A DNA stretch of 64,000 nt from Chiloscyllium plagiosum (lineage: Eukaryota), in assembly GCF_004010195.1 (NCBI RefSeq), contig NC_057749.1:14663429-14727428 (forward strand), in the 5' to 3' direction. Made by a program: the position numbers and the translations under genes. The notes under the pieces are model-generated. The model ran no database searches and was not told where the DNA came from. It was given only the letters and a program-made list of their open reading frames with translations. Each line of letters starts with the position of its first letter. Position 1 is the stretch's first letter. Positions 149 to 61,639 of this stretch are shown in pieces.

Positions 149-1267
149 GGTCGCCTGGTGATATTATTGCCAGACTATTAATCCAAAAACTCAGGTCATG
201 TTCTAGGGACCTGGGTTTGAATCCTACCACTGCTGATGGTGGAATTTGAATTCAATTAAAACAAATCTGGAATTAAGAATCTGCTGATGACCATGAAACC
301 ATCGTCAATTGTTGGAAAAACCCATCTCGTTCACGAATGCCCTTCAGCAAAGGAAATCTGCTATTCTTACCTGGTCTGACCTACATATGACTCCAGACAC
401 ACAGCAATGTGGTTGACTCTCAATCACCCTCTACAATGGTCTAGCAAGCCACTCAGTTGTACCAATCACTACAAAGTCTCAAAGAAATGAAATTGGATCG
501 ATCATCTGACATCTACCTAGGCACTGGAAAAGACAACGGCAGAAACAGCCCTGTCACCCCTGCAAAATTCTCCTTATGAATATCTGGGGGCTAGTGCTAA
601 AATTGGGAGAGCTGTCTCACAGATCAATCAAGCAACAGCCTGACATAGTCATACCTTACAGACGACTCACCACATTAAACACAGCGGCTACAAGATCAGG
701 TCAGAGGCTGCAGTAAGTAACTCACCTCCTGACACCCCAAGGACTGTCCACCATTCACAAAGCACAAGCCAAGGATATGATGGAATTCTGCCCATTTGCC
801 TGAATGCAGGCCCAACAACACTCAAGAAGCTGACACCATCCAGGACAAAGCTTCCTGCTTGATTGGCATTGCATCCACAAGCATCCACTCCCTCCATCAC
901 CGATGCTCAGTAGCAGCAGTGTATACCATCTACAAGATGCACTGCAGAAATTCACCAAAGATCCTCAGCGAGCACCTTTCAACTCCACGACCACAAGGAC
1001 AAGGGCAGCAGATACATGGGAACACCACCATCTTCAAGTTCCCCTCCAAGCCGCTCGCCGTCCTGACTACCCGTTCCTTCACTGTCACTGGGTCAAAATC
1101 CTGGAATTCCGTCCCTAAGGGCATTGTGGGTCAACCAACAGCAGGTAGACCATAGTGGTTCAAGGAGACAGCTCACCCCCACCTTCTCAAGGGGCAACTA
1201 GGGGACTGGCATTAAATATTGGCCCAACCAGTGATGCCACATCCGACAAATGAGTAAACAAAAAAAA
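149..1267 (+). mobile_element. tRNA-headed CR1-group LINE, internally deleted copy (head, APE N-terminus, ORF2 C-terminus, tail)
   Basis: B-box-like GGTTTGAATCC at 214-224; APE start (NIWGLVLKLGELSHRSIKQQPDIVI) at ~579-653 jumps at ~665 to C-terminal ORF2 (DTIQDKASCLIG..HSLHHRCSVAAVYTIYKMHC); A-rich tail; colinear with the reverse copy at 43442-46477. Confidence 0.85.
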
Positions 1268-4119: not shown

Positions 4120-4446
4120 CCTCTGATAGTACTATTATTGCTGCACTGTTAATCCAGAGACCCAGATAATGTTCTGGGTTCGAATCCTGCCATGGCAGAT
4201 GGTGGAATTTGAAATCAATAAAATATCTGGAATTAAGAGTCTAATGATGACCATGGACCTAGTGTTGAATATTGACAAAACTGGTTCACTAATGTTTTTC
4301 AGGGAAGAAAACTGCCATCCTTACCTGGTCTGTCCTACAGATACCTCCAGACCCACATGTGGTTGCCTCTTAACTGCCCTCTGGGCAATTAGGGATGGGT
4401 AATAAATATTGGCCTGATCAGAGATGCCCTCAGTGAATGAATGAAC
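4120..4446 (+). mobile_element. Short SINE derivative of the tRNA-headed LINE (head joined to tail)
   Basis: GGTTCGAATCC B box, shared body, junction GCCCTCTG|GGCAATTAGGGATGGG, GAATGAATGAA end. Confidence 0.85.
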
Positions 4447-4448
4447 AA

Positions 4449-4722
4449 GTACAGTGGCTCAGTGGTTAGCACTACTGCCTCACAGCACCAGGGTCCCAGG
4501 TTCGATTCCAGCCTCAGGTGACTGTCTGGGTGGAGCTTGCACATTCACCCCGTGTCTGCGTGGGTTTCCTTTGGATGCTCCGGTTTCCTCCCTCAGTCCA
4601 AAGATGTGCAGGTCAGGTGAATTGGCCATGCTAAATTGTCCATTGTGCTAGAGGGGTTACTCTTCAGAGGGTAGGTGAGGACTTGTTGGGCCGAAGGGCC
4701 TGTTTCCACGCTGTAGAGAATC
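4449..4722 (+). mobile_element. HE1 SINE
   Basis: Head, V-domain and GGGCCGAAGGGCCTGTTTCCAC tail. Confidence 0.92.
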
Positions 4723-4814
4723 CAAAAAACAGTAATTAAGTGGTTCTCAAACTTCGGTGATTCATAGACCATATTTCATCTTTAAAGGTTGCTTCATTCC
4801 TGTCGAAGTGTCTG

Positions 4815-5010
4815 ACTTGGCCACCCTTTATAGTCCATCCCTAATTTGCTTGAGAAATTACTTCAGTTCCTGGGGTTAGAGACAGGCACAGTGCTGTTTG
4901 GGAGGGAGTTTCAGGATTCTGACCCAAAGACACTGAAGGCATGGTAATGTATTTCCAAGTCAGGACAGTGAGTGGCTTGGAGCTGGTGGTAACTCCTTGA
5001 ATCTTCCCAT
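4815..5010 (-). mobile_element. 3' fragment of the tRNA-headed LINE family
   Basis: Similar to 43480-43700 (TATTTCCAAGTCAGGAC, GGGAGGGAGTTTCAGGATT). Confidence 0.7.
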
Positions 5011-5443: not shown

Positions 5444-5964
5444 TCCCATGATTATTTTAAAATACCTTTGTCTGGAACACTCATCTAAAGGAACCAGGTG
5501 TTTATAAAAACGGTGGTTACAGTCTTTGTAAACACGAGTGGTTTGGCTAAGTTTGGCTAAGTTTGAGAGGAGCACATTGATCCATGCTGGTATTTTGCAC
5601 ATTTCTCCACCCTCCCGCCCTAGGAGCAACATTTTCAGAGCTATGTAGGTTGTTCAAGAGCCAACATAGGTCTGATGGACTGAATGGCCTACTTCTGCAC
5701 TGCGAGGTGTGATGATCGTGTTACTCCCTTTTATCTGAACCGCCTAGACTTCTCCTGCAAATTCTAGCTACGATGCAGAGATGTGTGCAAGGCCTGCAAG
5801 CTGTTTGGTGCCTGTCAGTCCCACCATACTGAGCTCTGAGTCCAAAGGTTCAGGCCTCCATCAGAGCACTGGCTGACATTCCCAGTGTATTATTACACCT
5901 GTGCTCAAGTAATTAGAAATGCCGTCTTTTGGATGAAATGTCAAACATTTTAAAAGGGAAGTTG

Positions 5965-7256: not shown

Positions 7257-7636
7257 CAAAACAAATGGCAGCAATTTATCAAGGCTCCTTCAACAGTACC
7301 TTCAAACCCATGATCTCTATCACTCAGGAGAACGAGGGTATCAATGTTTGGGATCACCATCACCTTCATGTCTGTCTCCATGTCACTCACTACCCACCCT
7401 TCCTTTGCATTAATCTCGTGATTTACTGAATTCACTTTTGTCACCTGCCTGTCATTTAGTGAGAATCCAAAAGGTACACACTAGACCACAACGCTACCCC
7501 TTATCAGGTGTGAGGCTGCTCATGGTGCGAGTCTCTCGGGACTCCCCACAGAGTCTCGGGACTCCCTTACTTAAGTCTTCATTTGGCTTGTAAAAGTCAA
7601 GAGTTTTTTTTATCGACGTAGTCCTCTTATAAGGGG

Positions 7637-10782: not shown

Positions 10783-11100
10783 TTAGATTAGATTAGATTA
10801 CTTACAGTGTGGAAACAGGCCCTTCGGCCCAACAAGTCCACACTGACTCACCGAAGCGCAACCCACCTATACCCCTACATTTATCCCTTACCTAACACTA
10901 CGGGCAATTTAGTATGGCCAATTCACCTGACCCGCACATCTTTGTGACTGTGGGAGGAAACCGGAGCACCCGGAGGAAACCCACGCAGACACGGGGAGAA
11001 CATACAAACTCCACACAGTCAGTCGCCTGAGGCGGGAATTGAACCCGGGTCTCTGGCGCTGTGAGGCAGCAGTGCTAACCACTGTGCTACCATGCCGCCC
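10783..11100 (-). mobile_element. Full-length, well-preserved HE1 SINE
   Basis: (TTAGA)n tail, intact V-domain, CpG-retaining head ending CCATGCCGCCC. Confidence 0.95.
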
Positions 11101-14159: not shown

Positions 14160-14520
14160 CAGGTGACAAACTGCAAGGCCAAAGCAACCCCACTTGATTG
14201 GCACCACATGCACATTGACTCCCTTCACCACTGACCACAGTGTGTACCATCTACAAGATGCACTGCACTCGGACAGCATCTTCCAAACCCATGACCACTT
14301 CCATCTAGAAGGACGAGGGCAGCAGATCCATTGGGATACCATTAGCAGTGAGTTCCCCTCCATGCCACTCACCGTCCTGATTCGGAAAAATATCACCATT
14401 CCTTCACTGTCGCTGGGTCAAAATCCTGGAACTTGCTGCCTATCGGCGTTAACCCACAGCAGGTGGACTGGAGCGATTGAAGAAGGCAGCTCACCACCAC
14501 CTTCTCAAGGGGCAACTATT
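14160..14520 (+). mobile_element. 3' fragment of the tRNA-headed LINE family
   Basis: GTGTACCATCTACAAGATGCACTGC...CACCACCTTCTCAAGGGGCAACTA. Confidence 0.85.
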
Positions 14521-15534: not shown

Positions 15535-16103
15535 CCTTTATTCAGTCACAGGATGAGGGATTCACTGAGCAGGCAGCATTTATTCCCCATCTCTAATTGA
15601 CCAGAGGGCAGTTGAGTAAACCACATCGCTGTGGGTCTGGAGTCACATGTAGGCCAGACCAGGTCGTGAAGGACATTAGTGAACCAGATGGATTTTCCCA
15701 ACAATCAACAACGGATTTATGGTCATCATTAGACTCCTAATTCCAGATTTTTTATTGAATTCAAATTCCACCATATGCTGTGGGGGATTCGAACCCAGGT
15801 CCCCAGAACATTACCTGGATCTCTGGGTTGACAGAGCTGAAAATGTGTTGCTGGAAAAGCGCAGCAGGTCAGGCAGCATCCAAGGAACAGGAGAATCGAT
15901 GTTTCGGGCATAAGCCCTTCTTCAGGATTCCTGAAGAAGGGCTTATGCCTGAAACATCGATTCTCCTGTTCCTTGGATGCTGCCTGACCTGCTGTGCTTT
16001 TCCAGCAACACATTTTCAGCTCTGGTCTCCAGCATCAGCAGCCCTCACTTCCTCCTCTCTGGGTTGACAGTCCAATGATAATAGCACTAAGCCACCGCCT
16101 CCC
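15535..16103 (-). mobile_element. SINE derivative of the tRNA-headed LINE, interrupted by a Penelope palindrome
   Basis: Minus strand starts GGGAGGCGGTGGCTTAGTGC (A box) and has GGTTCGAATCC (B box); head-tail junction near 15600. Confidence 0.85.
15835..16055. mobile_element. Penelope-derived family-1 fold-back element with a 15-bp TSD
   Basis: ~93-bp inverted arms centred near 15928, 34-nt tail at 16022-16055; TSD TCTCTGGGTTGACAG at 15820-15834 and 16056-16070. Confidence 0.9.
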
Positions 16104-17970: not shown

Positions 17971-17974
17971 GGAC

Positions 17975-18320
17975 ACCAGTGAACCTGATGGGCATTTCCC
18001 CCAACAAGCGACAACAGATTTATGATCATCATACGACTATTCATTCCAGATTTGATTGAATTCCAGGTGAGGCAGGATTTAAACCCTGGTCCATGAGAAC
18101 ATTCCCCAGCTCTCTAGGGTTAATGTTAATGTCACAAGGTCATCACCTCCCCTTGGAGATGGTTAATAATTGAAACGATGAAAAATGAAATGTATAACAG
18201 ACACACAGCGATGTGGTTGACTCCTAACTGCTCTCTGAAATGGCCTGACAAGGGCCACTGAGGGGTAATTAGGGATGGACAATAAATGCTGGCTTTGCCA
18301 GTGGAGACCACATGAGAGAA
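17975..18320. mobile_element. Two opposed fragments of the tRNA-headed SINE family
   Basis: Minus-strand head part at 17975-18150; plus-strand tail part CACAGCGATGTGGTTGACTC..AATTAGGGATGGACAATAAATGCTGG at 18200-18320. Confidence 0.7.
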
Positions 18321-18720
18321 TTTAATCAAACAGATATTTTCTAATCAAAATATGTTATTATAATCCCCTATGCAGTACTCAATCCAATACACTTGCCGGT
18401 CCATCAACCCAGAGACACTTTGATACACACAGCGCTCCAGTTAAAACAGAATCCTGGGTTCTCATGGATTGGTGCCACTTCACTGGAGTTATAAATCCCC
18501 TGCTGACTTCACCCAGGGAGCTCTCCCCCCAGAGCCTGACTCACTCCTGGCAGAGCTGCCTGGCAGTTCCCAGGCACCACATCTGCCCACACACAACCCC
18601 TTCCTGCATAGATGGTTCATATTAAATTGTGAAGGAGAGGGGTGCACTTGGAAAAGTCGACTTCTCCCCCTCCTGATGCTGCTTGGCTTGCTGTGTTCGT
18701 CCAGCTTCCTGCCTGTCTAT

Positions 18721-19419: not shown

Positions 19420-19704
19420 GGGGTGGCACAGTGGCTCAGTGGTTAGCACTGTTGCCTCGCACCAGGGTCCCAGGTTCGATTCCAGCCTCGGGTGACTGCC
19501 TGTGTGGAGTTTGCACATTCTCCCTGGGTCTCCTCCCAAATCACAAAGATGTGCAGGTCAGGTGAATTGGCCATGCTAAATTGCCCGTAGTGTTAGATGC
19601 ATTAGTCAGAGGGAAATGGGTCTGGATGGGTTACTCTTCAGAGGGTTAGTGTGGACTTGTTGGGCTGAACGGCCTGTTTCCACACTGCAGGCAACCTAAT
19701 CTAA
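19420..19704 (+). mobile_element. HE1 SINE
   Basis: GGGGTGGCACAGTGGCTCAGTGG head, CTAATCTAA tail. Confidence 0.9.
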
Positions 19705-20529
19705 GTTGCTCTTGAAAAAACAATGGTGAGCAGGAAGAGTCATTAAACCACTGTACTGTCCAGCCTAGTATCTGCTCATAATGGAATCAAGGTGACATTT
19801 AAACCAGGGTCAATGCTGCTTTAAAAATTAAAACTATAAAAGAAATGCAGCTCTTGTACTGGGATTTTTCTTAGCTCCTGGATGAATTTAATATCCCAGT
19901 GTGGTCAAAATCCTGTGAGGAAGGATTTCGACCCAGCGACAATGATGGCGTGGTGATGTATTTCCAAGCCAGGATGATGTGTGTGGCTGAGAGGGGAATC
20001 TGCACTCTTGAAGAGGCCCCCTCCCATCGCTCAGTTTGCATCGAGGGGCAATTTCCAAACCTTGAAGTGGGGTCACAATTGGAAAGAGTTTGGGAAGCCC
20101 CTGTTCCAGGGGCTGGAGGTGGTGGGATTGGAAGGTGGTGAGTTGGTGAAGGTTGGAGATGGTACAGCTGTGTGGGTGATGGGAGACCGTGCAGTGTCCC
20201 CCACATTACGTTGGGGGGGAGAATGTGCCAATTACTCCTGTCTGCCGAGCTTGGCTGAAGGCTCAGCTCAGCTGTGATGCCTACCCAAGTTGAGCAGTGC
20301 TTCACAGTTGAGAGGCTTAAAAATGAACAACCATCAATACAATACAGGAAGTCACTTCCTTCAGGGAAACGATGATCTCTGTAATGCCTCACCTACAACA
20401 TTCCCATCATTTAATCACATCTCACCACATCACCCACAGTCTGTTAAACAATCTTTCAGGGGAAGGCGACATGTTTTTATGAGGAATATAAACTCGGAAA
20501 GTAAAACTCTGGACACTGCTGCGTTGCAG

Positions 20530-25003: not shown

Positions 25004-25564
25004 GCCGCTACGCCCCCACATTCCATGGTCACACGTCTAGAGGGTTCCTACCTACAGATCATTATTCCTCTCAATATGACAATTTCCTGTCTAAACTTGT
25101 CACGGAACACATTAACCACATTGCTGTGGGTCTGGAGTCATATGTAGGCCAGACCAAGTAAGAGCAACAGATCTCCTTTCCTGAAAGGAGTGAACCTGAT
25201 GGGATTTTACAACAATCTGGTTGTCATGGTCACCATCACTGAGCCAAGCATCCAATTCCAATGGGATTAAAACAGATGGATGTTTGATTGCTGACATGGA
25301 GATAATGGGCTGAAGGGCCACTTTCCATGCTGTGAAAGCTTAATGACATTGTTAATTGAATATGAATGCTTGTAGCTGCCTTGGTGCATTTGAACCTGAG
25401 CCCCTGGAGTAATCAGCCTGTGACTTCTAGCTTGGAGTAGGACATTACCACTGTACCACTGTCCTCAAACAAGGAAGTAGGAGATCATGCAATGGTTTAG
25501 GTTTGTGAAGTAAGAATTGTCAACTTCAGAGACCAAGATATGACCTGTATTTCTCAAAGATTTG

Positions 25565-28077: not shown

Positions 28078-28372
28078 TTTTTATTCAGCCACAGGGTGAG
28101 GGCTAGGCTAGCATTTATCGCCCATTCCTAATTGCAGAGGGTAGGTAAGAGCCAACCACATTGCTGTGGGTCTGGGGTCACATATCAACCAGACCAGATT
28201 TCCTTCCATAAAGGGAATCCCCAGGGTTGTCATAGTCATCAATAAGCCGGCTCTTTATTCCAGAGTTTTTGACTGAGTTCAAATTTCAAAGATTGCTGTG
28301 GTGGGATTCAAACCCATGTCCCAGCAATATCACGCTGGTTTTCTGCATCTCGACCAAGTGACATTGCTACAA
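28078..28372 (-). mobile_element. SINE derivative of the tRNA-headed LINE
   Basis: CCACATTGCTGTGGGTCTGG, GGGATTCAAACCC (reverse B box). Confidence 0.75.
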
Positions 28373-28621
28373 TGCTTCCCCTTCATGACACTGCAGTCCC
28401 CCTCCTCATAGTCAGCTCCTGACCACTTGCTGCAGGTCCCTGGCTTTGCTCATGTCTTGTTTATTCCAACTAAAAGTGGGTTACTCTATCACTGGCATCT
28501 GCAGGTTGGAGTCCAATGTCAGAGAATTGGACATGGAATCTAGACTGAGAGCCTGGCTGTGCCGAGGAGGTACTACACTGTGGGGAGGTTTTTGATTTGA
28601 TTTGACTTATTATTGTCACAG

Positions 28622-29060
28622 CAGTCTAATAACGGCCATGAACTCATTGTCAATTGTTTGAAAAACCCATCTTGTTCACTAATGTCCTTTAGGGAAGGAA
28701 ACTGCCATCCCTAGACAAGCAGGAGGCTGGAAGAACACAGCAAGCCAAGCAACCTCAGGAGGTGAAGACGTCAGTGTTTCAGGTATAATCCATCTTTACT
28801 CCTGCAGAAGGGTTACACCCGAAACGTTGACTTCTCCACCTCCTAATGCTGCCTGGCTTGCTGTGTTCTTCCAGCCTCCTGATTGCCTACCTTGGTTTCC
28901 AGCATTTTTTTGTCTCTAACCAAGATTCTTACCTGGTCTGGCCTACACATGACTAGACCCACAGCCATGTGGTCAACCATTAACAGCCCTCTGGGCAATT
29001 AGGGATGGGCAATAAATGCTGGCCTAGCCAGCGATGCCCTCATCCTGTGAATGAATTTTT
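28622..29060 (+). mobile_element. SINE derivative of the tRNA-headed LINE interrupted by a Penelope family-4 palindrome (28712-28920)
   Basis: Junction GCCCTCTG|GGCAATTAGGGATGGG; insert arms CAGGAGGCTGGAAGAACACAGCAAGCCA and TGGCTTGCTGTGTTCTTCCAGCCTCCTG, with core CTGCAGAAGGGTTACACCCGAAACG. Confidence 0.8.
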
Positions 29061-32154: not shown

Positions 32155-33130
32155 TCATTTATTGTTACATGTATTCAACCTAAAATACAGTGAAAAGTGT
32201 GGACCATCGCCATGCATAGCCATTTACTTAAACTTAAAATCAAATAAATAAGAAATAAAGATAACTTAAAGAGAGTTCAACTTTTCCTTCTCTGCTACTT
32301 CAGTCCTGCTCTGCGCTACACCAGCCTACACCATGTCCCTGCCAGAGTCTGGCTCTGCGCTACACCAGCCCACACCATGTCCCTGCCAGAGTCTGGCTCT
32401 GCGCTACATCAGCCTACACCATGTCCCTGCCAGAGTCTGACTCTGGGCTACACCAGCCCACACCATGTCCCTGCCAGAGTCTGGCTCTGCGCTACACCAG
32501 CCCACACCATGTCCCTGCCAGAGTCTGGCTCTGCGCTACACCAGCCTACACCATGTCCCTGCCAGAGTCTGGCTCTGCGCTACACCAGCCTACACCATGT
32601 CCCTGCCAGAGTCTGGCTCTGCGCTACACCAGCCTACACCATGTCTCTGCCAGAGTCTGGCTGTTTTTACCTCTGCGCTACACCAGCCTACACCATGTCC
32701 CTGCCAGAGTCTGGCTCTGCGCTACACCAGCCTACACCATGAGTTTGAGTCTGGCTCTGGGCTACACCAGCCTACACCATGTCCCTGCCAGAGTCTGGCT
32801 CTGCGCTACACCAGCCTACACCATGTCCCTGCCAGAGTCTGGCTCTGCGCTACACCAGCCTACACCATGTCCCTGCCAGAGTCTGGCTCTGCGCTACACC
32901 AGCCCACACCATGTCCCTGCCAGAGTCTGGCTCTGTGCTACATCAGCCTACACCATGTCCCTGCCAGAGTCTGGCTCTGCACTACACCAGCCTACACCAT
33001 GTCCCTGCCAGAGTCTGGCTCTGTGCTACATCAGCCTACACCATGCTGCCACCAGAGTCCCAGACTCCTCACTGTAGGTTTCACAGGCTGACCGATCTGT
33101 AGCCACGCTGCCTCTAAAGACACCGCCGTC
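32155..33130 (-). mobile_element. Probable Rex1/Babar-tailed non-autonomous element hosting a minisatellite
   Basis: TTTATTGTTACATG..ATACAGTGAAAAG tail similar to 14530 and 16850. Confidence 0.45.
32309..33060. repeat. 44-bp minisatellite, ~17 units
   Basis: Unit CTCTGCGCTACACCAGCCTACACCATGTCCCTGCCAGAGTCTGG, head to tail with no spacers. Confidence 0.97.
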
Positions 33131-33428: not shown

Positions 33429-35672
33429 TAGAGTCAGAGAGTTAGAGAGATGCACATCACAGAAACAGATCCTTCGGTCCAACCCGTCCATGCCGACCAG
33501 ATATCCCAACCCAATCTAGTCCCACCTGCCAGCACCCGGCTCATATCCCTCTAAACCCCTCCTATTCATATACCCATCCTGATGCCTTTTAAATGTTGCA
33601 ATTGTACCAGCCTCCACCACTTCCTCTGGCAGCTCATTCCATGTGTGAAAAAGTTGCCCCGTAGGTCTTTTTTATATAATTCCCCTCTCACTATAAACCC
33701 ATGCCCTCTAGTTCTGGACTCCCCCACCCCAGGGAAAAGACTTTGTCTATTTATCCTATCCATGCCCCTCATGATTTTATAAACCCCTCTAAGGTCATCC
33801 CTCAGCCTCCGACATGCCAGGGAAAACAGCCCCAGCCTGTTCAGCCTCTCCCTGTAGCTCAAATCCTCCAATCCTGGCAACATCCTTATAAATCTTTTCT
33901 GAACCCTTTCAAGTTTCACAACATCTTTCCCATAGGAAGGAAACCAGAATTGCATGGAATATTCCAAAAATTACCAAATCAATGTCCTGTACAGCTGCAA
34001 CATGAGCTCCTAACTCCTGTACTCAATACCCTTACCAATAAAGGAAAGCATACCAAACGCCTTCCTCACTATCTTGTCTACCCACGACTCCACTTTCAAG
34101 GAGCTATGAATCTGCACTCCAAGGTCTCTTTGTTCAGCAAATCTCCCTAGGACCTTACCGTTAGGTGTACAACTCCTGCTAGGATTTGCTTTCCCAAATG
34201 CAGCACCTCGTATTTATCTAAATTAAACTCCATCTGCCACTTCTCAGCCCATTGGCCCATCTGATCAAGATCCTGTTGTAATCTGAGGTAACCCTCTTCG
34301 CTGTCCACCTCCAATTTTGGTGTCATCTCCAAACTTACTAACTGTACCTATTATACTCGCAACCAAATCATTTATGTAAATGACAAAAAGTAGTGGACCC
34401 AGCACCGATCCTTGTGGCAGTCCTTGCCTTTCCAAATACATGTACATCCTGTCCGTCAGGACTCCCTCCAAAAACTTACCCACCACTGACATCAGGCTCA
34501 TCGGTCTATAGTTCCCTGGCTTGTCCTTACCCCCTTTCTTAAATAGTAGCATCACATTAGCCAATCTCCAGACTTCTGGCACCTCATCTGTGACTATTGA
34601 TGATACAAATATCTCAGTAAGAGGCCCAGCAATCACTTCCCTAGCTTCCCACAGAGTTCTCGGGTACACCTGGTCAGTTCCTGAGGATTAATCAAATTTT
34701 ATGCATTTCAAGACATCTAGAACTTCCTTCTCTGTAATATGGACATTTTTAAAGATGTTACCATCTATTTCCCTACATTCTATATCTTCCATGTCCTTCT
34801 CCACAGTAAGCACTGATGCAAAATACTCATTTAGTATCTCCCCCATCTCCTGCAGCTCCACACAAAGGCCGCTTGCTGATCTTTGAGGGGCCTTATTCAC
34901 TTCCTAGTTATCTTTTTGTCCTTAATGTATTTGTAAAAACCCTTTGGATTCTCCATAACTCTATTTGCCAAATCTATCATTTCCCCTTTTTGCCCTCCTG
35001 ATTTCCCTCTTAAGTGTACTCCTACTTCCTTTATACTCTTCTACCTGACATACGCTTTCTTCTTTTTCTTAAGCAAACCCTCAATTTCTTTAGTCATCCA
35101 ACATTCCCTATACCTACCAGCCTTCCCTTCCACTCTAACTGGAATATACTGTCTCTGGACTCTCGTTATCTCATTTCTGAAGGCTTCCCATTTTCCAGCC
35201 TGCGAACATCTGTCCCCAGTTAGCTTTTGAAAGTTCATGCCCAATACTGTCAAAATTAGCTTTGCTCCAATTTAGAATGCCAACTTTTAGATCCGGTCTA
35301 CCCTTTTCCACCACTACTTTAAAACTAATAAAACTATGATTGCTGGCCCGAAAATGCTCCCCCACTGACACCTCAGTCACCTGCCCTGCCTTATTTCCCA
35401 AGAGTAGGTCAAGTTTTGCATCTTCTCTTGTAGGTACATCCATATAATGAATCAGAAAATTTTCTTGTACACACTTAACAAATTCCTCTCCATCTAAACC
35501 CTTAACACTATGGCAATCCCAGTTTATGTTTGGAAAGTTAAAATCCCCTACCATAACCATCCTATTATTCTTACAGGTAACTGAGATCTCCTTACAAATT
35601 TATTTTTTAATTTCCCTCTGACTATTAGGGGGTCTATAATCCAATCCCAATAGGGTGAGCATCCCTTTCTTA
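33429..35672 (-). mobile_element. HER1-type CR1 LINE, ~2.2 kb with APE and RT remnants and internal deletions
   Basis: VMVGDFNFPNINW..LDLLLGN (APE); WRLANV..FKKG..GNYRP; PQGSVLGPLLFVIYIND..FGDD (RT); KLERVQKRF; tail. Confidence 0.95.
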
Positions 35673-36815: not shown

Positions 36816-37359
36816 CAGCGATAACGGCAGTTTAGATCAGATCGAGAGAGACTATTTGGGAAACTGGAGGTGAGAGAGATCAGGTCTACAAAATGGTAAA
36901 CTATTTTAGTTGTACATTGTCCAACAGAGAGTTTGGAAATCATTCCCTAGATATGAGAAAGCTTTATAAAAGATTTAAAAGCGCACTTGCACTGTTATTA
37001 GGATTCCTTGTCCAATAAACTCTATAACAAGGATGTTCCCCTTTCCCACTATCATATTTTTAAATCCTTATAGGTTGCTTGAGAGTTCAGGATTTTGTAC
37101 ATTCATTTAAAATGCCATAAAATTCAAGTATATTTGAGGTCAATTGTTCCTCAGGGGCTTGTTTTAGTGAGAAGTGATGATAAAACTCCAATCATTTCGG
37201 AATCAGTGAGGAGGTGAAAACACTCAAGGGAGGCTTGCGGGAAAGTGGGGCAGGGACTGTTAATCGAGTCAAAGAGAAGCTTCCATTCTGGTATCTCAGT
37301 GTTGTGCATTCTCATTCTGTATGGCTGTGCAGAGTTTCAATGGAATCTTCTTTCCTGGA

Positions 37360-37505
37360 GTCAGCCATCCTTACCCAGTCTGGCCTACATGTGACTCCAG
37401 ACCCACAGCAATGTGGTTGACTCTCAACTGCCCTCTGGGCAATTAGGGATGGGCAATAAATGCTGGCCTAGTCAGGGATGACCTCACACCATAAATGAAT
37501 TAAAA
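37360..37505 (+). mobile_element. 3' half of the tRNA-headed SINE derivative
   Basis: GACTCCAGACCCACAGCAATGTGG..CCCTCTG|GGCAATTAGGGATGGGCAATAAATG. Confidence 0.85.
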
Positions 37506-39210: not shown

Positions 39211-39312
39211 TCCTGACGCTCCAGGGAAAAGAGCCCCAACCTCTCCCTTTAGCTCAAACCCTCCAACCTTGGCAACATCCTGTAAATCTTTTCTGAACCC
39301 TTTCAAGTGTCC

Positions 39313-40045
39313 CTAGACTATTAATCCAGAGGCCAAGGGGACCCAAACTTGAATCCCAATGTGGCAGATAATGAACTTTAAATTCAATTTAAAAAATCTG
39401 GGATGAAGTGTCTCATGACGACCATGAACCTATTGTCAGTTGTTGCAAAAACCCATCTGGTTCACCAATGTCCTTGAGGAAAGGTAACTACTGTCTTTAA
39501 CTGGCTTAGCTAACATATGACTTCAGATCCACAGGATTGTGACTGACTCCTGCAGAGAGTTGTGACTGCAGCCCAGTCCATCACACAAACCAGCCTTCCA
39601 TCTACAGTATTGGCTCTGTCTACACTTCCCGCTGCATCGAGAAAGTAACCAACATAATCAAAGACCCCTCCCACCCCAGTTATACTCTCTTCCACCCTTT
39701 CCTATCAGGTGAAAGATATAAAAATTTGTGTACAGGTACGAACAGATTAAAGAACAGCTCCCTCCCTGCTGTTATCAGACTTTTAAATGAACCTCTTCAA
39801 TGTTAATGTTGATCTCTCTCTGCACCTTCTCTGTGGTTGTAACACTGTAGCCTGCACTCTGTTCTGTTACCCTGATGCACTTGTATATAAAGCACCTAAG
39901 ACAATACTTTTCACTGTACCTCGATTCACATCAGTAATGAATCAAAACAAATCAAATCAAATCACTCTCTGAAATGGCCACGTGTGTCACTCGGTTCAAG
40001 GGTAAGTTTGGATGGGTTGGTCTTGACACCCACATTCTGTGAAGA
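39313..40045 (+). mobile_element. tRNA-headed SINE derivative interrupted by a Rex1/Babar 3' end (39550-39963, +)
   Basis: SINE body stops at GACTGACTC and resumes ACTCTCTGAAATGG; the insert has the LQRVVTAAQSIT frame and an (AATCA)n tail. Confidence 0.8.
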
Positions 40046-40089
40046 AATAAATCCTTATAAACTACAAATGTCTGGGTAGAGGCATGAAT

Positions 40090-41877: not shown

Positions 41878-42231
41878 GAACAAAGAACAAAGAACAAAGA
41901 AACTTTACAGCCCAGGAACAGGCCCTTCGGCCCTCCAAGTCTGAGCATCACCTCACATTTGCCTGAATTGAACTCCATCTGCCACTTCTCTGCCCAACTC
42001 TCCAGTCTATCTATATTCTCCTACAGTCCCCTATGCTTTCTGCTATTCCACCAATCTTAATGTCATCTGCAAACTTGCTGATCATACCAACAGTGCTCTC
42101 TTCCATATCATTTATGTATAAAACAAATAATAGTGGCCGCAGCACTGATCTTTGTGGAACACCACTGATCACCTTTCTCCATTTTGAGAAACTCCTTTCA
42201 ACTACTACTCTCTGTCTCCTGTTGCTCAACC
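41878..42231 (-). mobile_element. CR1 fragment (RT core joined to a (GAACAAA)n tail)
   Basis: RRQRVVVERSFSKWRKVISGVPQRSVLRPLLFVLYIND..FADD. Confidence 0.9.
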
Positions 42232-42232
42232 G

Positions 42233-42551
42233 ATACAGCATGGTGGTTCAGTGCTTAGCAGGTTTGATTCCAGCCTTGGGCAACTGTCTGTGTGGTGTTT
42301 GCACATCCTCCCCGTGTCTGCATGGATTTTCTCTGAGTGCTCCAGTTTCCTCTCACAATCCAAAGATGTGTAGGTTAGGGTGGATTGGTCATGCTAAATT
42401 GTCTATAGTATCTAGAGATGTGCAAGCTAGGTGGGTTAACCATGGGAAATGCAGGGTCACAGGGATGGGGTGGGTCTAGGTAGGATGCTTTTCGGAGGGT
42501 CAGTGTAGACTCGATGGGCTGATTGGTTTGCTTCCACACTGGAGGGAATCT
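42233..42551 (+). mobile_element. HE1 SINE
   Basis: V-domain and GGGTCAGTGTAGACTCGATGGGC tail. Confidence 0.88.
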
Positions 42552-43290: not shown

Positions 43291-43441
43291 AATACAAAGC
43301 AGATGTTCCCAACTTACTTTGATCAGGGTATTTATTGACACCACTACTTCAGGCTTCAAACAAAGCCTATTTACTCAGCAAACGGTCTATTTTTAGAGCA
43401 CCCTGCAGCAAACATGTAAAGAATCTACTGTATTTAATAGG

Positions 43442-46400
43442 TTTTTTTATTCATTTGTGGGATGTGGGAGTCACCGGCTAGGCCAGCATTTATTGCCCAT
43501 CCCTAGTTGCCCCTTGAGAAGGTGACAGTGAGCTGCCTTCTTGAACTGCTGCAATCAGTGTGCTGCAGGTAGACTCACAATGCCCTTAGGGAGGGAATTC
43601 CAGGATTTTGACCCAGCGACAGTGAAGGAACAGTGACCTATTTCCAAGTCAGGATGGTGAGTGGCTTGGGAGGGGAACTTGTAGGTGGTGGTGTTCCCGT
43701 GTACCTACTGTCTTGTTGTTCCAGATGGAAGTGGTCATGGGTTTGGAAGGTGCAGGATCTTTGGTGAATTTCTGCAGTACATCGTGTAGTTAGTTCACAC
43801 TGCTGAGACTGAGCATCGGTGGTGGAGTGATTGGATGCTTGTGGATGTGACGCCAATCAAACGGGCTGCTTTGTCCTGGATGATGTCAAGCTTCTTGAGT
43901 GTTGTTGGAGCTGCACCCATCCATGGTAAGTAGGCAGTATTCCATCACACCCCTGACTTGTGCCTTGTAGATGGTGGACAGGCTTTATGGAGTCAGGAGA
44001 TGAGTTACTCACTGCCTCTGACCTGCTCTTGTAGCTACTGTGTTTATGTGATGAGTTCAGTTGAGTTTCTGGTCAATGGTAACCCCCAGGATGTTGATAA
44101 TGGGGGATTTAGTGATGTTATTACCATTGAATATCAAGAAGCAGTGGTTAGATTGCCTCTTATTAGTGTTGGTGCATTTGAACTGGGACTGCCTCAGTAT
44201 CTGAATAGTCACAAATGGTCCTGAACAATGTGCAATTGTTGGTGAGCATTCCCACTTCTGACACTACCCTGAGGAAGTCCTGCAGAGATGTCCTGGACCT
44301 GAGATGAGTGACCTCCAATAACAATGACCATTTTCCTATGTGTCAGGTATGACTCTACCCTGCAGAGAGTTTGCCCCCTGATACTCATTGATTATTCAGT
44401 TTTGCTCGGGCTCCTTGATGCCACATTCGGTTGAATGTCAAAAGGTTGTCACTCTTACCTCCCTCTGGAATTCAGCCCTTCTGTCCATGTTTGAACCAAA
44501 GTTGTAATGAGGTCAGGAGCTGAGTGGGCGTCATTGAGCAGGTTGTTGCTGAGCAGGTGCTGCTTGATAGCGCTGCTGATGACACCTTCCATCACTTTAC
44601 TGATGTTGGAGAGGAGGCTGATGGGGCAGTAATTGTCCAAGATGTACAGGATGTGCCTGGACAAATTTACACATTGTTGGATGGATGCCGTATTGTAACA
44701 ATTCTGGAAGAGCTCGGCTAGGGGAGCAACAGGTTCTGGAGCACAAGTCTTCAGTACTAGTGCCGGAATGTTGTCAGGGCCCATAGCTTTTGCAGTATCC
44801 AGTGCCTTCAACCATTTCTTGATATCACGTGGAGTGAATCGAATTGGCTGAAGACAGGTATCTGTGATGCTGGGGACCACTGGAGGTGGCCGAGATGGCC
44901 AGCCACTCGGCACTTTAACCTGAGGATTACTGCAAAAGCTTCAGCCTTATCTTTCGCACTGATGTGCTGGGCTCTTCCATCATTGAGCTTGGGGATATTT
45001 GTGGAGCCTCCTCCTCCAGTGAGTTGTTTAATTGTCCACCATCATTCACAACTGGATGTGGCAGGACTGCAGAGTTTAAATCTGATCCATTGCTCATGGG
45101 AATCACTTAGCCCTGTCTATCACTTGCTGTTACGCTGTTTGGCATGCAGGTAGTCCTCTTTGGTGGTGTCGCCATGTTGACACCTCATTTTCAGGTATAC
45201 CTGGTGCTGCTCCTGCCATGCCCTCCCGCACTCTCCGTTGTACCTGGGTTGATCCTCTGGCTGGATAGTAATGGTTGAGGGGATATGCTGGGCCATGAGG
45301 TTACAGATTGCGCTGGAGTTCAGTTCTGCTGCTGTTGATGGTCCACAGTGCCTCATGGATGCTCAGTCTTGAATTACTAGATCTGTTCGAAGTCTGTGCC
45401 ATTTAGCGTGGTGATAATGTCACACAACACAATGGAGGTTAGTGGCAAAGTGAAGGCGGGACTTTGTCTCTACGAGAACAGTGTGGTGGACACTCTTACC
45501 AATACTGTCATGGACAGATACATCTGCAGTTGGCAGATTGATAAGGATGAGATCAAGTATGTTTTTCCCTCTTGTTGGTTCCCTCACCACCTGCCACAGT
45601 CCGAGTCTAGGAGCTATCTCCTTTAGGAACTGACCAGCTTGATCAGTAGTACTGCTGCCAAGCCAATCTTGGTGATGGACATTGAAATCCCCTGCCCTGA
45701 GTACATATTGTGCCCTTGTCATCCTCAGTGGTTCCTCCAAGTGTTGTTCAACATGGAGGAATATCGATTCATCAGACGATGGATGATGGTTGATAGTAAT
45801 CAGCACGAGACTTCATGGGGTCTGGAGCCAATGTTGAGGACTCCCAGAGCAACTCTGTCCCGACCATGTACCACTGTGCTGCCACCTCTGCTGGGCCTGT
45901 CCTGCTGTGAGACAGGACATATCCAGGGATGGTGATGGTGGTGTCTGGGATATTGTCTGTAAGGTATGATTCCATGAGTATGACTATGTCAGGCTGTTGC
46001 TTGACTCGTCCGGGAGACAGCTCTCCCAGTTTTGGCATTAGCCTCCAGATGTTGGTAAGGAGGACTTTACAGAGTCGAAGGGCTGTTTTTACCGTTGTCT
46101 TTTCCCGTGCCTAGGTCGATGCCAGATGAATCCATCCAGTTTCATTCCTTTGAGACTTTGTAGTGATTGGTACAACTGAGTGGCTTGCTAGGCCATTTCA
46201 GGGGGCGATTGAGAGTCAACCACATTTCTGTGGATCTGGAGTCACATGTAGGTTAGACTGGATGAAGATGGCAGTTTCCTTCCCTGAAGGGCATTAGTGA
46301 ACCAGATGGGGTTTTCTCACAATCAGCAAAGGTTTCATGGTCATCTGTAGATTCTTAATTCCAAGTATTTTCGGATAAATCTACCATCTGCTGTTGACCT

Positions 46401-46477
46401 GAACCCAAGTCGGCAGAACATTAGCTGAGTTTCTAGATTAATAGTTAAGTGATAATAGGTCAATAGGCCATTGCCCC
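43442..46477 (-). mobile_element. Near full-length tRNA-headed CR1-group LINE (degenerate APE+RT, no ORF1)
   Basis: Head at 46477-46380; APE (KQQPDIVILMES, AGDFNVHH, ILDLIL); KAMGPDNIP..NYCPISLLSNISKVME; SAGLPQGSV near 44270; tail GGGCAACTAGGGATGGGCAATAAATGCTGGCC..AATAAAAAAA. Confidence 0.9.
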
Positions 46478-46698
46478 TCATGGTCCTCTGTAAACTATAG
46501 CAAGCAGAAAGCTGAAAGTCAGCCCCTTTCTGTTAACAACAGAGTGATTTCCCTTGTAGAATATAGTGAGCAGAGGTATTTATTTATTTATTTAAAGTAA
46601 TTGTCCATTGCCTGTTGCCAGAGGTCTCCAGTGTGACTAATGGGGAATTAGTCAATCATCTCAAGCCATCTGGGATGGTGGTGTCCTTTTATTTAATG

Positions 46699-48607: not shown

Positions 48608-48875
48608 AGATTAGATTAGATTCCCTACAGTATGGAAACAGGCCATTTGGCCCAACAAGTCCACACCGACCCTCCAAAGAGTAACCCACCCCTCTATATT
48701 TACTCCTGACTAATGCACCTCACACTATGGGCAATTTAGTATGACCAATTCACCTGGCCTGCACATCTTTGGATTGTGGGAGGAAACCCACACAGACAGT
48801 CACCCAAGGTGGGAATCAAACCTGGGTCCCTGGCACTGTAAGGCAGCAGTGCTAACCACTGAGCCACTGTACCAC
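48606..48875 (-). mobile_element. HE1 SINE, internally deleted
   Basis: (TTAGA)n tail and reverse head. Confidence 0.88.
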
Positions 48876-49371
48876 CCTTTATTTTCACTTTCTGCATACT
48901 TTATACTTTGCAATGACATTGACAATTGCACCAAGCTCCACATTCTGCCCTTCTGATTCTCAGTTCCTCCTCTGGAATAAATGGTGACTAGATAATATCT
49001 CTGGCCCCTAGTTTTTAATTCTCTCCCACCATTATTTTTTCAGATTGTCTCGGGATTGGTAATAGACGTCAGCTTTGTCAGCAACTCCCAAGTCCCCAGC
49101 AAATTCTAAAACCAACTTGCCTTACTCTACTATCAGGGGAGCTCAGAATGTCAGTAATAATTTAATTTGAATTCCTTTCAAAAATTCAAAAGGTAAGGGC
49201 TTGAAATAGAACATTTTTAATATCATTTCAAAATGATGAAGCAAGTTCAATTATTCATTCTGTGAAGCGAGTTTCACTCAGAGATTAACTGCATTAGGCA
49301 TTTAAAAACTTTTGACAAATGACCTACCTTCACGATACCAGAGTAAGAAGACTGCAGGCTGTCTAAACGTG

Positions 49372-50829: not shown

Positions 50830-51390
50830 TTTTTTTATTCACTCATGGCATGAGGGCATCACTGGCTGGGCCAGCATTCATTACCCATCCCTAATCGCCA
50901 GCAAATAGTTCACAGTCAACCATATTGCTGTGGGTCTGGAGTCACGTGGAGATGAGGACCACAGATTTATTTCCCTAAAGGACATTATTGAACCAGATGT
51001 GATTTTCCCTTGACAATTAACAATGGACAATGGTTTTATGGTCATCATTAGCCGGTAAAATGTAGAGCTGGAGAAAGCACAGCAGGGCATGCAGTATCAA
51101 AAGATGTTTCAGGCAGGACCCTTCATCAGGACTCATGGTCATCATTACACTCTTAACTCCAGAATTTTTTTAAGGGGATGAGGAGAGAACTTTAAGATTG
51201 AGATGATACCAGAACAGGAATGGTTTTATGGTCATCATTAGCCGGTAAAATGTGGAGCTGGAGAAAGCACAGCAGGGCAAGCAGTATCAAAAGATGTTTC
51301 AGGCAGGACCCTTCATCAGGACTCATGGTCATCATTACACTCTTAACTCCAGAATTTTTTAAATTGAATTCAAGTCACTGTCCACCATCC
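50830..51390 (-). mobile_element. tRNA-headed SINE derivative with a Penelope insert and a ~144-bp duplication
   Basis: CCAGCATTCATTACCCATCCCTAAT tail; insert flanked by ATGGTCATCATTA; 51029-51173 duplicated at 51219-51362. Confidence 0.8.
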
Positions 51391-52105
51391 TCCATCAGGA
51401 AAGACCAGTCGGGGTAACAGTGCACCAGCGTGCTGCAGTTGTTGTCTAAGGGCTTCAGGATCCTGGAACAACCTTTCATCGTTGTGTATTGCTGAGCATA
51501 AATAGCACATTGTGGGTGGAGTTGAACTAGATACTACACCAGACTAGACAACCTCCAAATGACAGAGAGAGAGAGAGAGGGAGAGAGTCTAAAGAGCACA
51601 TGGACAAGAATTAAAGGAGATGATTAATCCTTACATAATGTAACAATTAGATTAGAGCCTGATCTATCTCTGATTCCAATTCTTGGCAGTATTTAATATT
51701 CATGTATAATAGGTAGTGTTATGTTCAAGACTAAGCCAACAGTCTTCGACATCCCTGCCAGACCCTCCTGCCTTCTCCCAGACCTTTCTGTCCTGAACCT
51801 AACCTCTAGTGAGTGGCATTAGACCACACAATAAAAGGTGTACCTTCAGGAGAGAAGCGGTAGAAATGCAGGGCAAGAAAAACCTGAAAGGTGGGCAGCT
51901 TTCTCCATCACACCTTGCTGGTCTTGACTGAAGCAGGACAATTAGTTTCACTGTGAGGACATCCTGAACCATAGAGCATTCTCTGAGTTTTCAAAGTTAA
52001 AAAATCACACAACACCAGTTTATAGTCCAGCAGGTTTATTTGGAAGCACTAGCTTTTGGAGCTCAGTGAAAGCTAGTACTTCCAAATAAATCTGTTTGGA
52101 TTATA

Positions 52106-52317: not shown

Positions 52318-52748
52318 TGTTTGGACTATAACCTGGTGATGTGTGATTTTTAACTTTGTACACCGCAGTCCAACAACTGCACCTCCAAATCTCTGAGTTT
52401 TAATTTGCTTTCAATGACCAGGACATCAATCACACAAGCAGGGGACATGATCACAGAATCAGCTCTCAATACTCTTGACAGCACAGTGTCCTGAGAGCAT
52501 GTAAGCTGAGAGTCAAAACTTCCCATATTTAGATAATAGGGGAACAACATTTTCAGAAGATCTGATTCAGTACTTAACAAATGACCCTTTAACTTCTGTT
52601 TAATGTGTGCAGGCCAGTTTATTGTAATGCACAGTCCCTTTGAAATTGATCAGAGATGCATTTGTACATCTTAAAGGGACCATTATTCATGTGTGACTCT
52701 TTGTTCCCTGCAATACAGGTCGCTGACTGCTGTGTTATTCCTCTGCAG

Positions 52749-52772: not shown

Positions 52773-53809
52773 GTAAGTGTTGCTAGGGTGAGGGCTGACA
52801 TCCAGAACCAAGATGTAACCGATATTTGAGTGAGGCTATGTGGGACTTATACCAGGAAGCACTTCCTCACACAAAGATAAGTGGTGGCCTGGAGCTCCCT
52901 CTCCCAAAGTTCTGTGCATTTCAATCAATTAATTAATAGTGATTCAATTCTAGGGTTGATCAATTTGCATTGGGTATGTAGGGGCTTGCAATTGATGGGT
53001 AAATGGAATTGCACATCAGACATGATCTTGGTGACATTATAATCAAGGACTTCTCACAGAGAAGAATGAATACTGGGAAGCAGCTGTGTTTATATAGCAC
53101 CTTTAATCCATACGTCCACACAACCTAGACGCAGGAATGTCCTGCTCCTGTCCTTGAACTTCCTCTGCCATTTGATGAGATTGAGGCTGATCCAACTGTA
53201 GTCTCAACTCTACTTTCCTGCCCCAGTAACCTTTGGCTCCCTTGTCAACCAACAATTTCTCTAACTCAGCCTGAAAAAGATTTTGTGACTCTGTCTCCAC
53301 ATCCCAAGTCACTCCACTGTAACGTTAGCAAAAGAAGTTGGACCCTGACCTACATAAGCAGATTTTTAACACCGATGAACAAAGACTTGGTACATTTTGA
53401 GGAGTGTCTTAACAAAGTAAAAGAGGGGATGGAGGAAGGGAATTCTAAAACTTCGGGTCCAAACAGACTGAAGGCAGACTGGGAGGATATGGGCCAGAGC
53501 TGAGGAATGCATGGATTCTGATGGGTTGTAGGGCTGGAGGGCATTATAATCTAGCAGTGTCTGGCAGGAATGCCCAAGCCAAACGGAAGTGGGAACTCAT
53601 AATGGGTACGTGTTAATGAAGAGTTAATTGAATGAGAATTTGTTTGGTGCCTATACAAAGGGAAAAGTGCTTTTAGTGTTTTGTGGTGTGTGGAAAAATA
53701 TATGCCTGAACTCTGTCTGTCTAACCAATTCTTAATCTCTAACGTTCAATGGAGGACATTATAGAAGATAAACCCAGTAATATCTATAGTGGCTGATGGT
53801 GCTGTTTCT

Positions 53810-54485
53810 CATTCACCTGTGGAATGTGGGTGTCTCTGGCTGGGCCAGCATTTATTGCCCATCCTTAGTTGCTCCTTGAGAAGGTGGTGGTGAGCTGCAT
53901 TCTTGAACAACTGCAGTCCACCTGCTGTAGGTTGACCCACAATGCTCTTAGGGAGGGAATTCCAGGATTTTGACTCAGCGACACTGAAGAAATGGTAATA
54001 TATTTCAAAGTCAGGATGGTGAGTGGTTTGGAGGGGAACTTGAAGGGGTTGGTGTTCCCATGTATCTGCTGCCCTTGTCCTTCTAGATGGAAGTGGTCGT
54101 GGGTTTAGAAGATGCTATTTCTGGATTTTTTGCAAATAAATGTAGTGCATCTTGTAGATTATACACGCTGTTGCTACTGAGTGTCAATGGTGGAGGGAGT
54201 GAATGTTTGTAGATGTGGTGCCAATCAAGCGGGCTGCTTAGTCCTGGATGGTGTCAAGCTCTTGAGCGTTGTTGGAACTACACCCTTTCAGGCAAGTGGG
54301 CCATATTCCATCACACTCCTGACTTGTGCCTTGTAAATGATGCACAGGTTCTGGGGATTCAGGAGCTGAATTTTTTGTAGCAGTATTCCTAGTCTCTGAT
54401 CTGCTTTTGCAGCCATTGTGTTTATGTGGTGAGACCAGTTGAGTTTCTGGTCAATGGTAACCCCCTGGATGTTAATATTAGGCAA
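53810..54485 (-). mobile_element. 3' fragment of the tRNA-headed LINE family
   Basis: GVTIDQKLNWSHHINTMA..IYKAQVRSVMEY; tail CCAGCATTTATTGCCCATCC. Confidence 0.9.
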
Positions 54486-55422
54486 TTCAGCTAGTTTGAA
54501 CTGGGTAATCTACTCATGTGGAAGTAAAATTCCTCCTGGTGTACATGAGGTTGAGTCTGACTGCAAAAGAGTCCCATACGCCAAAGGATTTAACATATAT
54601 GTGCATCCATTCACTGAACTACAGCACGGTTAATGTCCTGCAGATAATTAGTATACTGTACAGTTGAATGTTATAAATAAGCTGTGCGATTTACATGGTA
54701 TATATAGAGATACTGGGAGTGATTACGAGGCAGTAATGTCACTGTGAGATCTTGGTGATGCTATAAATCATTGAATGATTTATAACAGTGTTCGGGACTA
54801 AGTTTAAATTACTACCTTAAAGTAATTTCAGTCTATCTGTTAACTTTTACAATATGCCACCTTTTGATTTTAGAATGATTTTGTTGCATTGCTGTCAGTT
54901 TCTGAAGCTTTGATCAGAGAACTTAATATTGTAGATGTGTTGAAGTGTCATCCCTGCTCTCTTCTGCTTAATGATTCTCCTCAGCAGCCTCCCACACTCA
55001 GAAGCTGCAGTTCATGCAAACCCTCCTCTTCAACCAAACTACTTCTCACTACCCACTCCCCATCTCTGCTGGCCTCATTCACCTCCACTAGTTTGTACCC
55101 TTCAATAGATTCAATTCAAAATCTTATCTAAAAAAATCACTTATCTACCATCGCCATCCAGTCCGCCACCAATGTCCCTGTGGCTTCACCCAGTTTACAT
55201 TTGCAAAGTCCTCCAGCCCAATGTGTTCACTGGACTCCCCCTTAACTTTGGCATTGTTTGTGTCTCAACCCCTCTACCCCTCTACCTTAACTTTGATTGT
55301 TTCCAGTCTCTAGACCCTGACACTTGAACTTTGCTCACTCTGTCCAGTCATCAAATACTTCCTGCAGTCACCTTCTCAAATTCCAGGATCTTTGTGTCTG
55401 TGCAGAAAAGCATCATCTGTAA

Positions 55423-60869: not shown

Positions 60870-61560
60870 CAGCAGCTGCTACAATTTAAATTCAATTCAT
60901 AAGATCTGGAATTGAAAGTCTCTTGTGGTGCAGTGGTAATGTCCCTACCTCTGAGCCAAGAGGCCTGGGTTCAATTTCCATCTGTCAGATAGGCGTGTAA
61001 TGATGTCTCTGAACCTGTTGATTAAGACAAAGTATGTACAGGAAGAAATGTGGAATTGAAAGCTAACCTCAATAATGGTGCCCTATCACTATCATCAATT
61101 TTCATGAAACACTACTGGTTGACTAAGTCAAACACAGAAACTGGTGGAAAAACTCAGCAGGTCAGGCAGCATCTGTGGTGAGAAAGCGCAGTTAATGATT
61201 TGAGTTCAGCGACTGTTCTGATGAGAAATCACTGGACTTGGAATGTTGACTCTGTTTCTCCCTCCACAGATGCTGCAGGACCTGTTGAGTATCCCCCCCC
61301 CCCCCCCCCCAATTTCTGTGTTTGTTTCAGATCTCCAGCATCTGCAATTCTTTGTTTTACTTTGGTTTCCTGACTGCCTTTAGGGAAGGAAATCTGTCAC
61401 TGTTACCCGGCCTGGCCTACATATGACTCCAGATTCACAGCAATGTCGAGCTGCATCTTGACTCCCCTCTGAAATGACCCTGGTGAGCCCCTCAGCTCGA
61501 CAGCAGTTTGAGATATGCAACAGATGCCAGCTTTACCAATACACATACATCCTGAGAAAG
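60870..61560 (+). mobile_element. tRNA-headed SINE derivative with a nested short SINE (60920-61025) and a Penelope family-2 palindrome (61130-61360)
   Basis: TGGAATTGAAAG occurs on both sides of the first insert; TTTAGGGAAGGAAATCTG..GACTCCAGATTCACAGCAATG. Confidence 0.7.
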
Positions 61561-61639
61561 AAGAAACCTCGATATTTCCTCCTGTGAGTTGACTTGTTCA
61601 ATACAGTCTCTCCCTGGTTATTACACGGCAAAAATAAAG

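Follow-up and report, generated by a model that had tools for sequence, protein, structure and literature searches.

SINEs (short interspersed nuclear elements) are thought to be assembled from parts, a head derived from a small RNA being joined to the tail of a long interspersed nuclear element (LINE), with a body that is mostly of unknown origin. In a stretch of 64,000 nucleotides from the shark Chiloscyllium plagiosum (assembly GCF_004010195.1, contig NC_057749.1, positions 14,663,429 to 14,727,428 of the forward strand; hereafter the window), we compared an abundant short repeat having a tRNA-like head with a long element in which both ends of that repeat recur. We conclude that the short element is probably a non-autonomous deletion derivative of the long one, an elasmobranch LINE of the Zenon family.

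The closest described counterpart is Persaeus, a short internally deleted element (SIDE) of Zenon in Lepidoptera, which likewise consists of the Zenon 5' end joined to the end of the open reading frame (ORF) and the 3' end, is present in high copy, measures 263-386 bp and has had several origins; according to the accessible part of its description, it shows neither tRNA homology nor a promoter for Pol III (RNA polymerase III), and its middle is variable (PMC6740152). A second precedent is offered by the bipartite SINEs, such as Bov-tA (Bov-A/Bov-B) and those related to RTE and Vingi, whose body and tail likewise go back to a single LINE, to its 5' part and its 3' part; in these, as far as the accessible parts of the sources tell, the LINE is headless, the RNA head was added after the deletion, and the contributors found are RTE and Vingi only (PMC5786205, PMC4494074). 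Zenon itself belongs to the CR1 group, in which it alone carries a poly-A tail, and in elasmobranchs it is described as devoid of ORF1, A-tailed, about 3.3 kb long, as is the long element of the window, and not yet included in repeat repositories; the main text of that partly accessible source is without the terms 'tRNA', 'promoter', 'polymerase', 'non-autonomous' and 'internal deletion' (PMC13343379). In these papers and in the accessible parts of further literature (PMC3747384, PMC4824008, PMC11481361, PMC7245038, bioRxiv 10.1101/443036), neither this SINE nor the head on Zenon was found described; Repbase, Dfam and SINEBase lay outside the search and may hold either under some name.

A Zenon LINE with a tRNA-like head

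The long element (Table 1) has one ORF, for which tblastn covers most of a 962-aa relative and the endonuclease gives a Pfam match; ORF1 is absent, and only ~350 bases lie upstream. The poly-A tail expected of Zenon is seen as A7-A8 ends both at 43440-43447 and, in an internally deleted copy at 149-1267, at 1259-1267. Published Zenon consensus rows from white shark, whale shark, catshark, dogfish (three rows) and stingray, compared over their first 400 letters, all agree by eye with the long element; the whale-shark row is the nearest, which points to a carpet shark as the probable host, and a 16-base motif of the window is present in all seven. On these sequence features the long element is an elasmobranch Zenon. 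In a quick reverse transcriptase (RT) tree, built without named Zenon references, it groups with single-ORF marine-invertebrate relatives (support 93). Its relatives comprise shark gene-model fragments (Heptranchias, Heterodontus) and single-ORF elements of ~960-1,000 aa, some of them from Branchiostoma; scans of viral contigs for relatives found nothing, and a scan of prokaryote genomes gave nine distant loci with 25-36% identity.

Loci L081-L089 are animal-type LINE ORFs within prokaryote genome bins, likely as a result of host contamination; gene models P0003, P0016 and P0023, two of which are named shark proteins, translate pieces of this LINE within other proteins and are likely annotation artefacts; and the ORF of the long copy continues for ~11 codons into the tail shared with the short element (43511-43480, minus strand), relatives stopping 4-7 residues past the same motif.

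The head leads all seven published elasmobranch rows, which come from five species, and in these rows, as accessible, it continues through both of the breakpoints described below toward the ORF. Motifs resembling the A and B boxes can be made out in them by eye, as can a stem-loop like that of an anticodon. In the window, the B-box is exact in 2 of 12 rows and has one mismatch in two more. A tRNA origin of the head is likely, judging from these motifs. Head and ORF are linked in two window copies sharing the same head-ORF junction and, among the contig pieces listed for two of the public sequencing runs introduced below (X1, X9), 6 of 23 bridge the two, each extending out of the endonuclease as far as the 5' region, at 44-55 differences. 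Since this link is common to sharks and a ray, it is old. The two groups separated roughly 250-300 million years ago. The family is dense in the window, occupying about 2.8 kb of 64 kb, as would suit a chance neighbourhood in which a SINE landed before a truncated LINE, or an artefact of consensus building; nevertheless, we give such accounts a negligible chance and judge them refuted, since the head-ORF junction is repeated in two independent window copies, is bridged by other copies in two runs, is present in the accessible rows of five species, and has no SINE tail between head and ORF.

Table 1. Coordinates of the Zenon LINE and of its deleted and short relatives in the window
Feature	Position	Strand	Remark
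Decayed full-length Zenon LINE	43440..46481	-	tRNA-like head, body, one endonuclease-RT ORF (stops, frameshifts), A-rich tail
LINE 5' part common to class I	46199..46481	-	
Hairpin with 7-base loop	46176..46201	-	kept in class II, lost in class I
Single broken ORF, apurinic/apyrimidinic (AP) endonuclease and RT	43480..46130	-	matches most of the 962-aa relative
LINE 3' end common to both short classes	43445..43511	-	stem-loop
5'-truncated copy of the same LINE	53805..54490	-	
Other 3' piece of the same LINE	14176..14518	+	
Other 3' piece of the same LINE	4801..4980	-	
Other 3' piece of the same LINE	19922..19998	-	
Other 3' piece of the same LINE	7268..7395	+	
Internally deleted LINE copy	150..1262	+	head with the first part of the endonuclease at 150-654, last part of the ORF at 665-1262; diagnostic states of the LINE type
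Class I short element, 5' part (tRNA-like head and body)	4124..4383	+	homologous to LINE 46481-46199
B-box-type motif in head, exact	4177..4187	+	A-box region of this copy decayed
Class I short element, 3' part	4384..4448	+	terminal LINE sequence, beginning within the final ORF codons, with the stem-loop of the tail and an A-rich end
Class I copy	15537..15842	-	junction 15602/15601
Class I copy, decayed	28085..28385	-	junction ~28131
Class I copy, split by insertion 28713-28924	28620..29056	+	exact junction 28993/28994
Class I copy, 5'-truncated	37357..37503	+	exact junction 37437/37438
Class I copy, decayed, interrupted	50830..51414	-	junction ~50905
Head and body, tail-less, decayed	25112..25411	-	class unassigned
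Class II copy, 3' half	18198..18330	+	26 extra bases
Class II copy, split by insertion 39552-39959	39305..40050	+	29 extra bases
Class II copy, 5'-truncated, most decayed	61363..61570	+	30 extra bases

The short element and its junctions

The short form termed class I is represented at ~4124-4448 (plus strand) by the first ~283 bases of the LINE (46481-46199) joined to its last ~67 bases (43511-43445) and an A-tail, the 3' part beginning within the last codons of the ORF. The shared 3' tail has a predicted stem-loop fold both in the LINE and in the class I copies. All of the short copies are composed of LINE 5' and LINE 3' sequence only, with no sequence of their own and no doubled tail. In this the short element has the make-up of a SIDE, the two ends of a single LINE with the coding middle absent, and the junction common to many class I copies indicates, as in a SIDE, amplification of their own; at the same time it is shorter than 700 bp, non-coding and LINE-derived at the 3' end, as tRNA-derived SINEs are in the accessible part of the definition used (PMC3531059). 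A junction motif of 19 bases recurs without change at 4376, 28986 and 37430 and, with two mismatches, at 15609 (minus strand), and this upholds the sequence-only reading of the window, made before our analysis, which had described the repeat as LINE head plus tail with a fixed junction and had placed a reversed copy near 15600. Two copies with decayed junctions, at ~28131 and ~50905 (both minus strand), come in addition to those it had listed and bring class I to six copies in the window. Among all short copies, three are split by younger insertions or duplications (28713-28924, an imperfect palindrome, 39552-39959 and 51053-51319), and the tail-less copy at 25112-25411 (minus strand) appears by eye to be nearer, in its middle, to the dogfish-type than to the whale-shark-type Zenon head, and is perhaps an older subfamily.

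Genome-wide evidence on the junction came from four public runs (X1, X9, X16 and X21), aligned to the long copy at 80% likeness. Run depth is unbroken across 3 kb and nearly nil beyond 46483, and because of this collapse the 5' end of the LINE can be regarded as fixed. Fifteen joints were listed, with 16,829 further rows, and among those listed four join 43505-43512 to 46212; summed over these four, they amount to 69 contigs in X1, 79 in X9 and 26 in X16, and to five reads in X21. Furthermore, contigs whose loose end at 46212 shows the class I junction number 1,163 (X1), 1,162 (X9) and 187 (X16). None of these figures is a copy number. The earlier proposal that the short form had amplified as a family is borne out by these runs, which took the place of the genome-wide grouping of copies by junction position suggested with it, the class I junction being fixed in the six window copies and present in over 1,100 contigs both of X1 and of X9, each a genomic run. 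The RNA reads of X21 mostly (0.96) continue into unlike sequence, as expected of host transcripts. Among the joints listed there is none of class II and none of the type found in the copy at 149-1267.

Class II has three copies, at 18233, 39967 and 61467, which retain 26, 29 and 30 extra bases of the LINE 5' region, respectively. The longer-junction class proposed earlier is therefore real as regards its three copies and their sites, and falls short as regards a fixed junction, since the copies are decayed and their junctions are not base-identical. Class I corresponds to class II without ~29 bases, in which one hairpin lies. The two classes may have amplified independently, as the sequence-only reading proposed, but a nested origin of class I within class II is as simple as two separate deletions. 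A T in the tail is common to both classes; it also occurs in one of five LINE-type window tails and hence is not decisive. At one of the class II sites, an inverted head half (17971-18138, minus strand) lies 60 bases upstream of the class II 3' half (18198-18330, plus strand), an arrangement that resembles a 5'-inverted insertion.

The internally deleted copy at 149-1267 had been regarded as an intermediate between the long and short forms. This placement does not hold, since at 8 of 197 diagnostic head columns the copy and the full LINE agree with each other and differ from the short copies (chance would give about 1-3; P 3e-5 to 0.01), and the two also have in common a C in the tail; on its sequence, it is best described as a late, one-off deletion offshoot of the later LINE.

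Direction of derivation

The order of events can be read from seven head sites compared by eye between the window copies and the published Zenon rows, over their accessible part. At two of these, the short copies, including one of class II, carry the state of the window LINE and of the whale-shark row, a derived state that is absent from the white shark, catshark and dogfish rows. At three others most class I copies (2/3, 4/4 and 4/5) have the older state and both long copies the whale-shark state, and at the last two class I is mixed (2/5 and 2/6). In addition, the class I tail has T where four of five LINE-type tails have C. Read from these sites, the short forms branch off the local lineage of headed LINEs, which went on changing. 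The LINE-to-SINE direction, preferred in the sequence-only reading, is accordingly strengthened, since all seven elasmobranch rows have the head attached to the ORF and the short heads are intermediate between the white-shark/catshark and whale-shark types. The deletion route is further supported because the same route is known for Zenon in Lepidoptera, in the accessible part of PMC6740152.

The explanation that we favour would begin before the split of sharks and rays, when a single-ORF Zenon would have acquired at its 5' end a tRNA-like head bearing motifs of the A and B boxes, a structure still visible in the present elements. RT would then have skipped from the ORF end to the 5' region, joining head and body to the last ~67 bases. 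Class II would be a product that retained the 5' hairpin, and class I would have dropped it by a second skip across it or by a direct skip from the LINE. Class I has spread as a family with a fixed junction. Pol III would transcribe its short RNA, using the inherited head, and by analogy with other LINE-SINE pairs the Zenon protein would copy this RNA in trans by means of the shared 3' stem-loop. The LINE would have kept evolving afterwards, and the copy at 149-1267 would have been cut from that later LINE. Because the parent LINE is already headed, one deletion suffices for a complete SINE-like element and a separate capture of a head is unneeded.

The mixed states of class I at two sites, which follow the order of the LINE lineage, would also be expected if the same junction had arisen repeatedly at a deletion hot spot, during or after insertion, from successive LINE masters and with little or no amplification of a short master, the donor and acceptor sites being loosely alike. 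In agreement with this, the alignment of a class I copy with the LINE 3' region extends across the junction of that copy, the two being partially identical upstream of the breakpoint. However, direct local alignment of donor and acceptor gives a 6-base match only, out of register; the junction is base-identical in three copies and dominant in the runs of three organisms; and class I keeps older states at the three head sites above, together with the tail T. We consider the chances of such recurrence slim. A few separate births, each followed by amplification, are possible and compatible with derivation by deletion from the LINE.

The opposite direction, which the sequence-only reading had left as an alternative, would start from an older class II-like SINE with tRNA head, body and Zenon tail, the 5' part of which was passed on to a Zenon ORF, either in a template switch or through recombination; class I would descend from class II alone, and later exchange of heads with the LINE would account for the states that they share. 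In a variant of it, a headless deletion derivative received a tRNA and returned the head to the LINE. Several observations point this way: the class II copies are the most decayed; the head is not visible by eye in the first 400 letters of three hagfish/coelacanth Zenon rows, as accessible, nor in 80 related loci, so that it must have been acquired somewhere; and the addition of heads by template switching is an accepted route in the accessible part of PMC5786205. On the other hand, the switch would have had to hit the border of body and tail exactly, as the LINE contains the 5' part of class II in full and, at that place, nothing of the class II tail, and repeated exchange of heads would be needed for derived states that are shared only with the local LINE. 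A fainter objection comes from the class II hairpin: in L001 and L002, the nearest invertebrate relatives, the native 5' region has a hairpin with a similar 7-base loop, equally far from the ORF, 2 of 60 loci in all, with a motif that was chosen after the fact, which is no more than a hint. Overall, we regard this order of events as unlikely; the capture of an ORF by a SINE could apply solely to how the head first arose, before sharks and rays diverged.

A number of results weigh against derivation by deletion from a tRNA-headed LINE. ARAGORN and Rfam call no tRNA on the decayed copies of the window, and the 112 calls of a relaxed ARAGORN run on the window were all judged to be noise; the term 'tRNA-headed' used in the earlier description is thus backed by the box motifs and not by these programs. 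The 5' regions of L001 and L002 match the shark body no better than shuffles (P 0.2-0.9), and an anchored test of the same regions gave P 0.04 and 0.17, a score equalled by two unrelated loci of 60. Clear target-site duplications were found in none of the six copies examined. The class II tails are the most diverged, with 0.53-0.79 identity to other tails, and in a tree of heads and tails from the window none of nine inner branches is starred. Finally, the polarity depends on seven sites scored by eye in decayed copies, and an exchange of heads between SINE and LINE through template switching could mimic the pattern.

Transcription of the LINE, neighbouring repeats and known systems

We put forward, tentatively and with odds that we place on the lower side, that elasmobranch Zenon could encode protein as an autonomous LINE and yet owe its 3-kb RNA to Pol III, acting at a tRNA-derived internal promoter; this RNA would lack T-run terminators and be translated in the absence of both a cap and an in-frame AUG, and true SINEs would arise from the LINE by a single deletion, possibly several times. 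The sense strand of the LINE has 11 runs of three or more T, where its base content would predict 25.6 (a ratio of 0.43; Poisson P about 0.001). In 39 related ORFs, which come from other hosts and are not all independent, this ratio has a median of 1.04 and a minimum of 0.74; it is 1.2-1.65 in six pieces of other window LINE families, and the LINE has the lowest value among 122 window tiles. Within 680 in-frame codons there are 6 T3 runs, where codon permutation gives 10.7 (P 0.026), and TT-ending codons are avoided (31/70 versus 60/49 for the other four-fold boxes, P 0.0005). Against a Pol III transcript speak the T4 runs, the real terminator, of which the LINE copy has two, not significantly few (P 0.45 in dinucleotide shuffles, P 0.46 in codon permutation), the A and C runs, which are also somewhat low in the ORF (0.73 and 0.71), and the RNA reads, which mostly run on into other sequence. 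A depletion of phenylalanine (Phe; 1.9% in the window copy, 19/1,134 in pooled shark-type fragments versus 90/3,187) was dropped as not robust, and the best-kept shark piece has 3.2% Phe, inside the range of 1.9-4.3% of 11 relatives. A conserved ATG ~100 bases upstream of the endonuclease motif (46140-46060, minus strand, and the stingray row as accessible) appears by eye to be out of frame with the ORF, so that the start codon of the LINE may be other than AUG; this would fit unusual initiation. Other, distant LINE families in the window (33830-35660 and 41898-42290, minus strand; 49612-50320, plus strand) have normal or high T-run content.

Among the neighbouring repeats, a second abundant tRNA-headed SINE occurs at 4451-4725 (plus strand), 2093-2388, 10783-11100, 19421-19704, 48605-48877 and elsewhere, and one of its copies abuts the 3' end of the class I element at 4124-4448. 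This second family is presumably HE1-like. A tandem array with a period of ~88 bases lies at 32299-33059, and a palindromic repeat of ~220 bases, resembling a miniature inverted-repeat transposable element (MITE), has three copies ~90% alike (15832-16062, 52099-52324 and 55640-55859). At ~5790-5950 and ~58494, Deu motifs with 3-4 mismatches mark a decayed, separate SINE of Deu type, probably SacSINE1-like.

SacSINE1 is likewise an abundant tRNA-headed shark SINE, but it has a Deu domain and an L2-type tail, as stated in the accessible part of PMC5499810. Its identity, or that of another Deu-SINE, with the short element was rejected, the Deu motif matching only at 5921 and 58494, outside this family; a second Deu motif had no match in the window, nor had the Meta and UCON3 domain motifs at up to four mismatches.

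The present analysis contributes the Zenon identity of the parent, a polarity drawn from five species, a set of controls for the T-runs and run-level counts of the junction. In practical terms, the short form would be tallied as Zenon or CR1 fragments in the annotation of shark genomes. A tRNA-like promoter is ordinarily confined to short repeats. It is commonly assumed that coding LINEs depend on RNA polymerase II and that SINEs are non-coding; a LINE with a Pol III-type head and few T-runs makes this assumption testable. The finding of head, body and tail all within one autonomous LINE of sharks and rays means, moreover, that a SINE can arise by plain deletion. The shark element thus differs from Persaeus in its clean junction, in the tRNA-like head present on both parent and derivative, and in its vertebrate host, and it differs from the bipartite SINEs in that its parent LINE belongs to the CR1 group and is itself headed.
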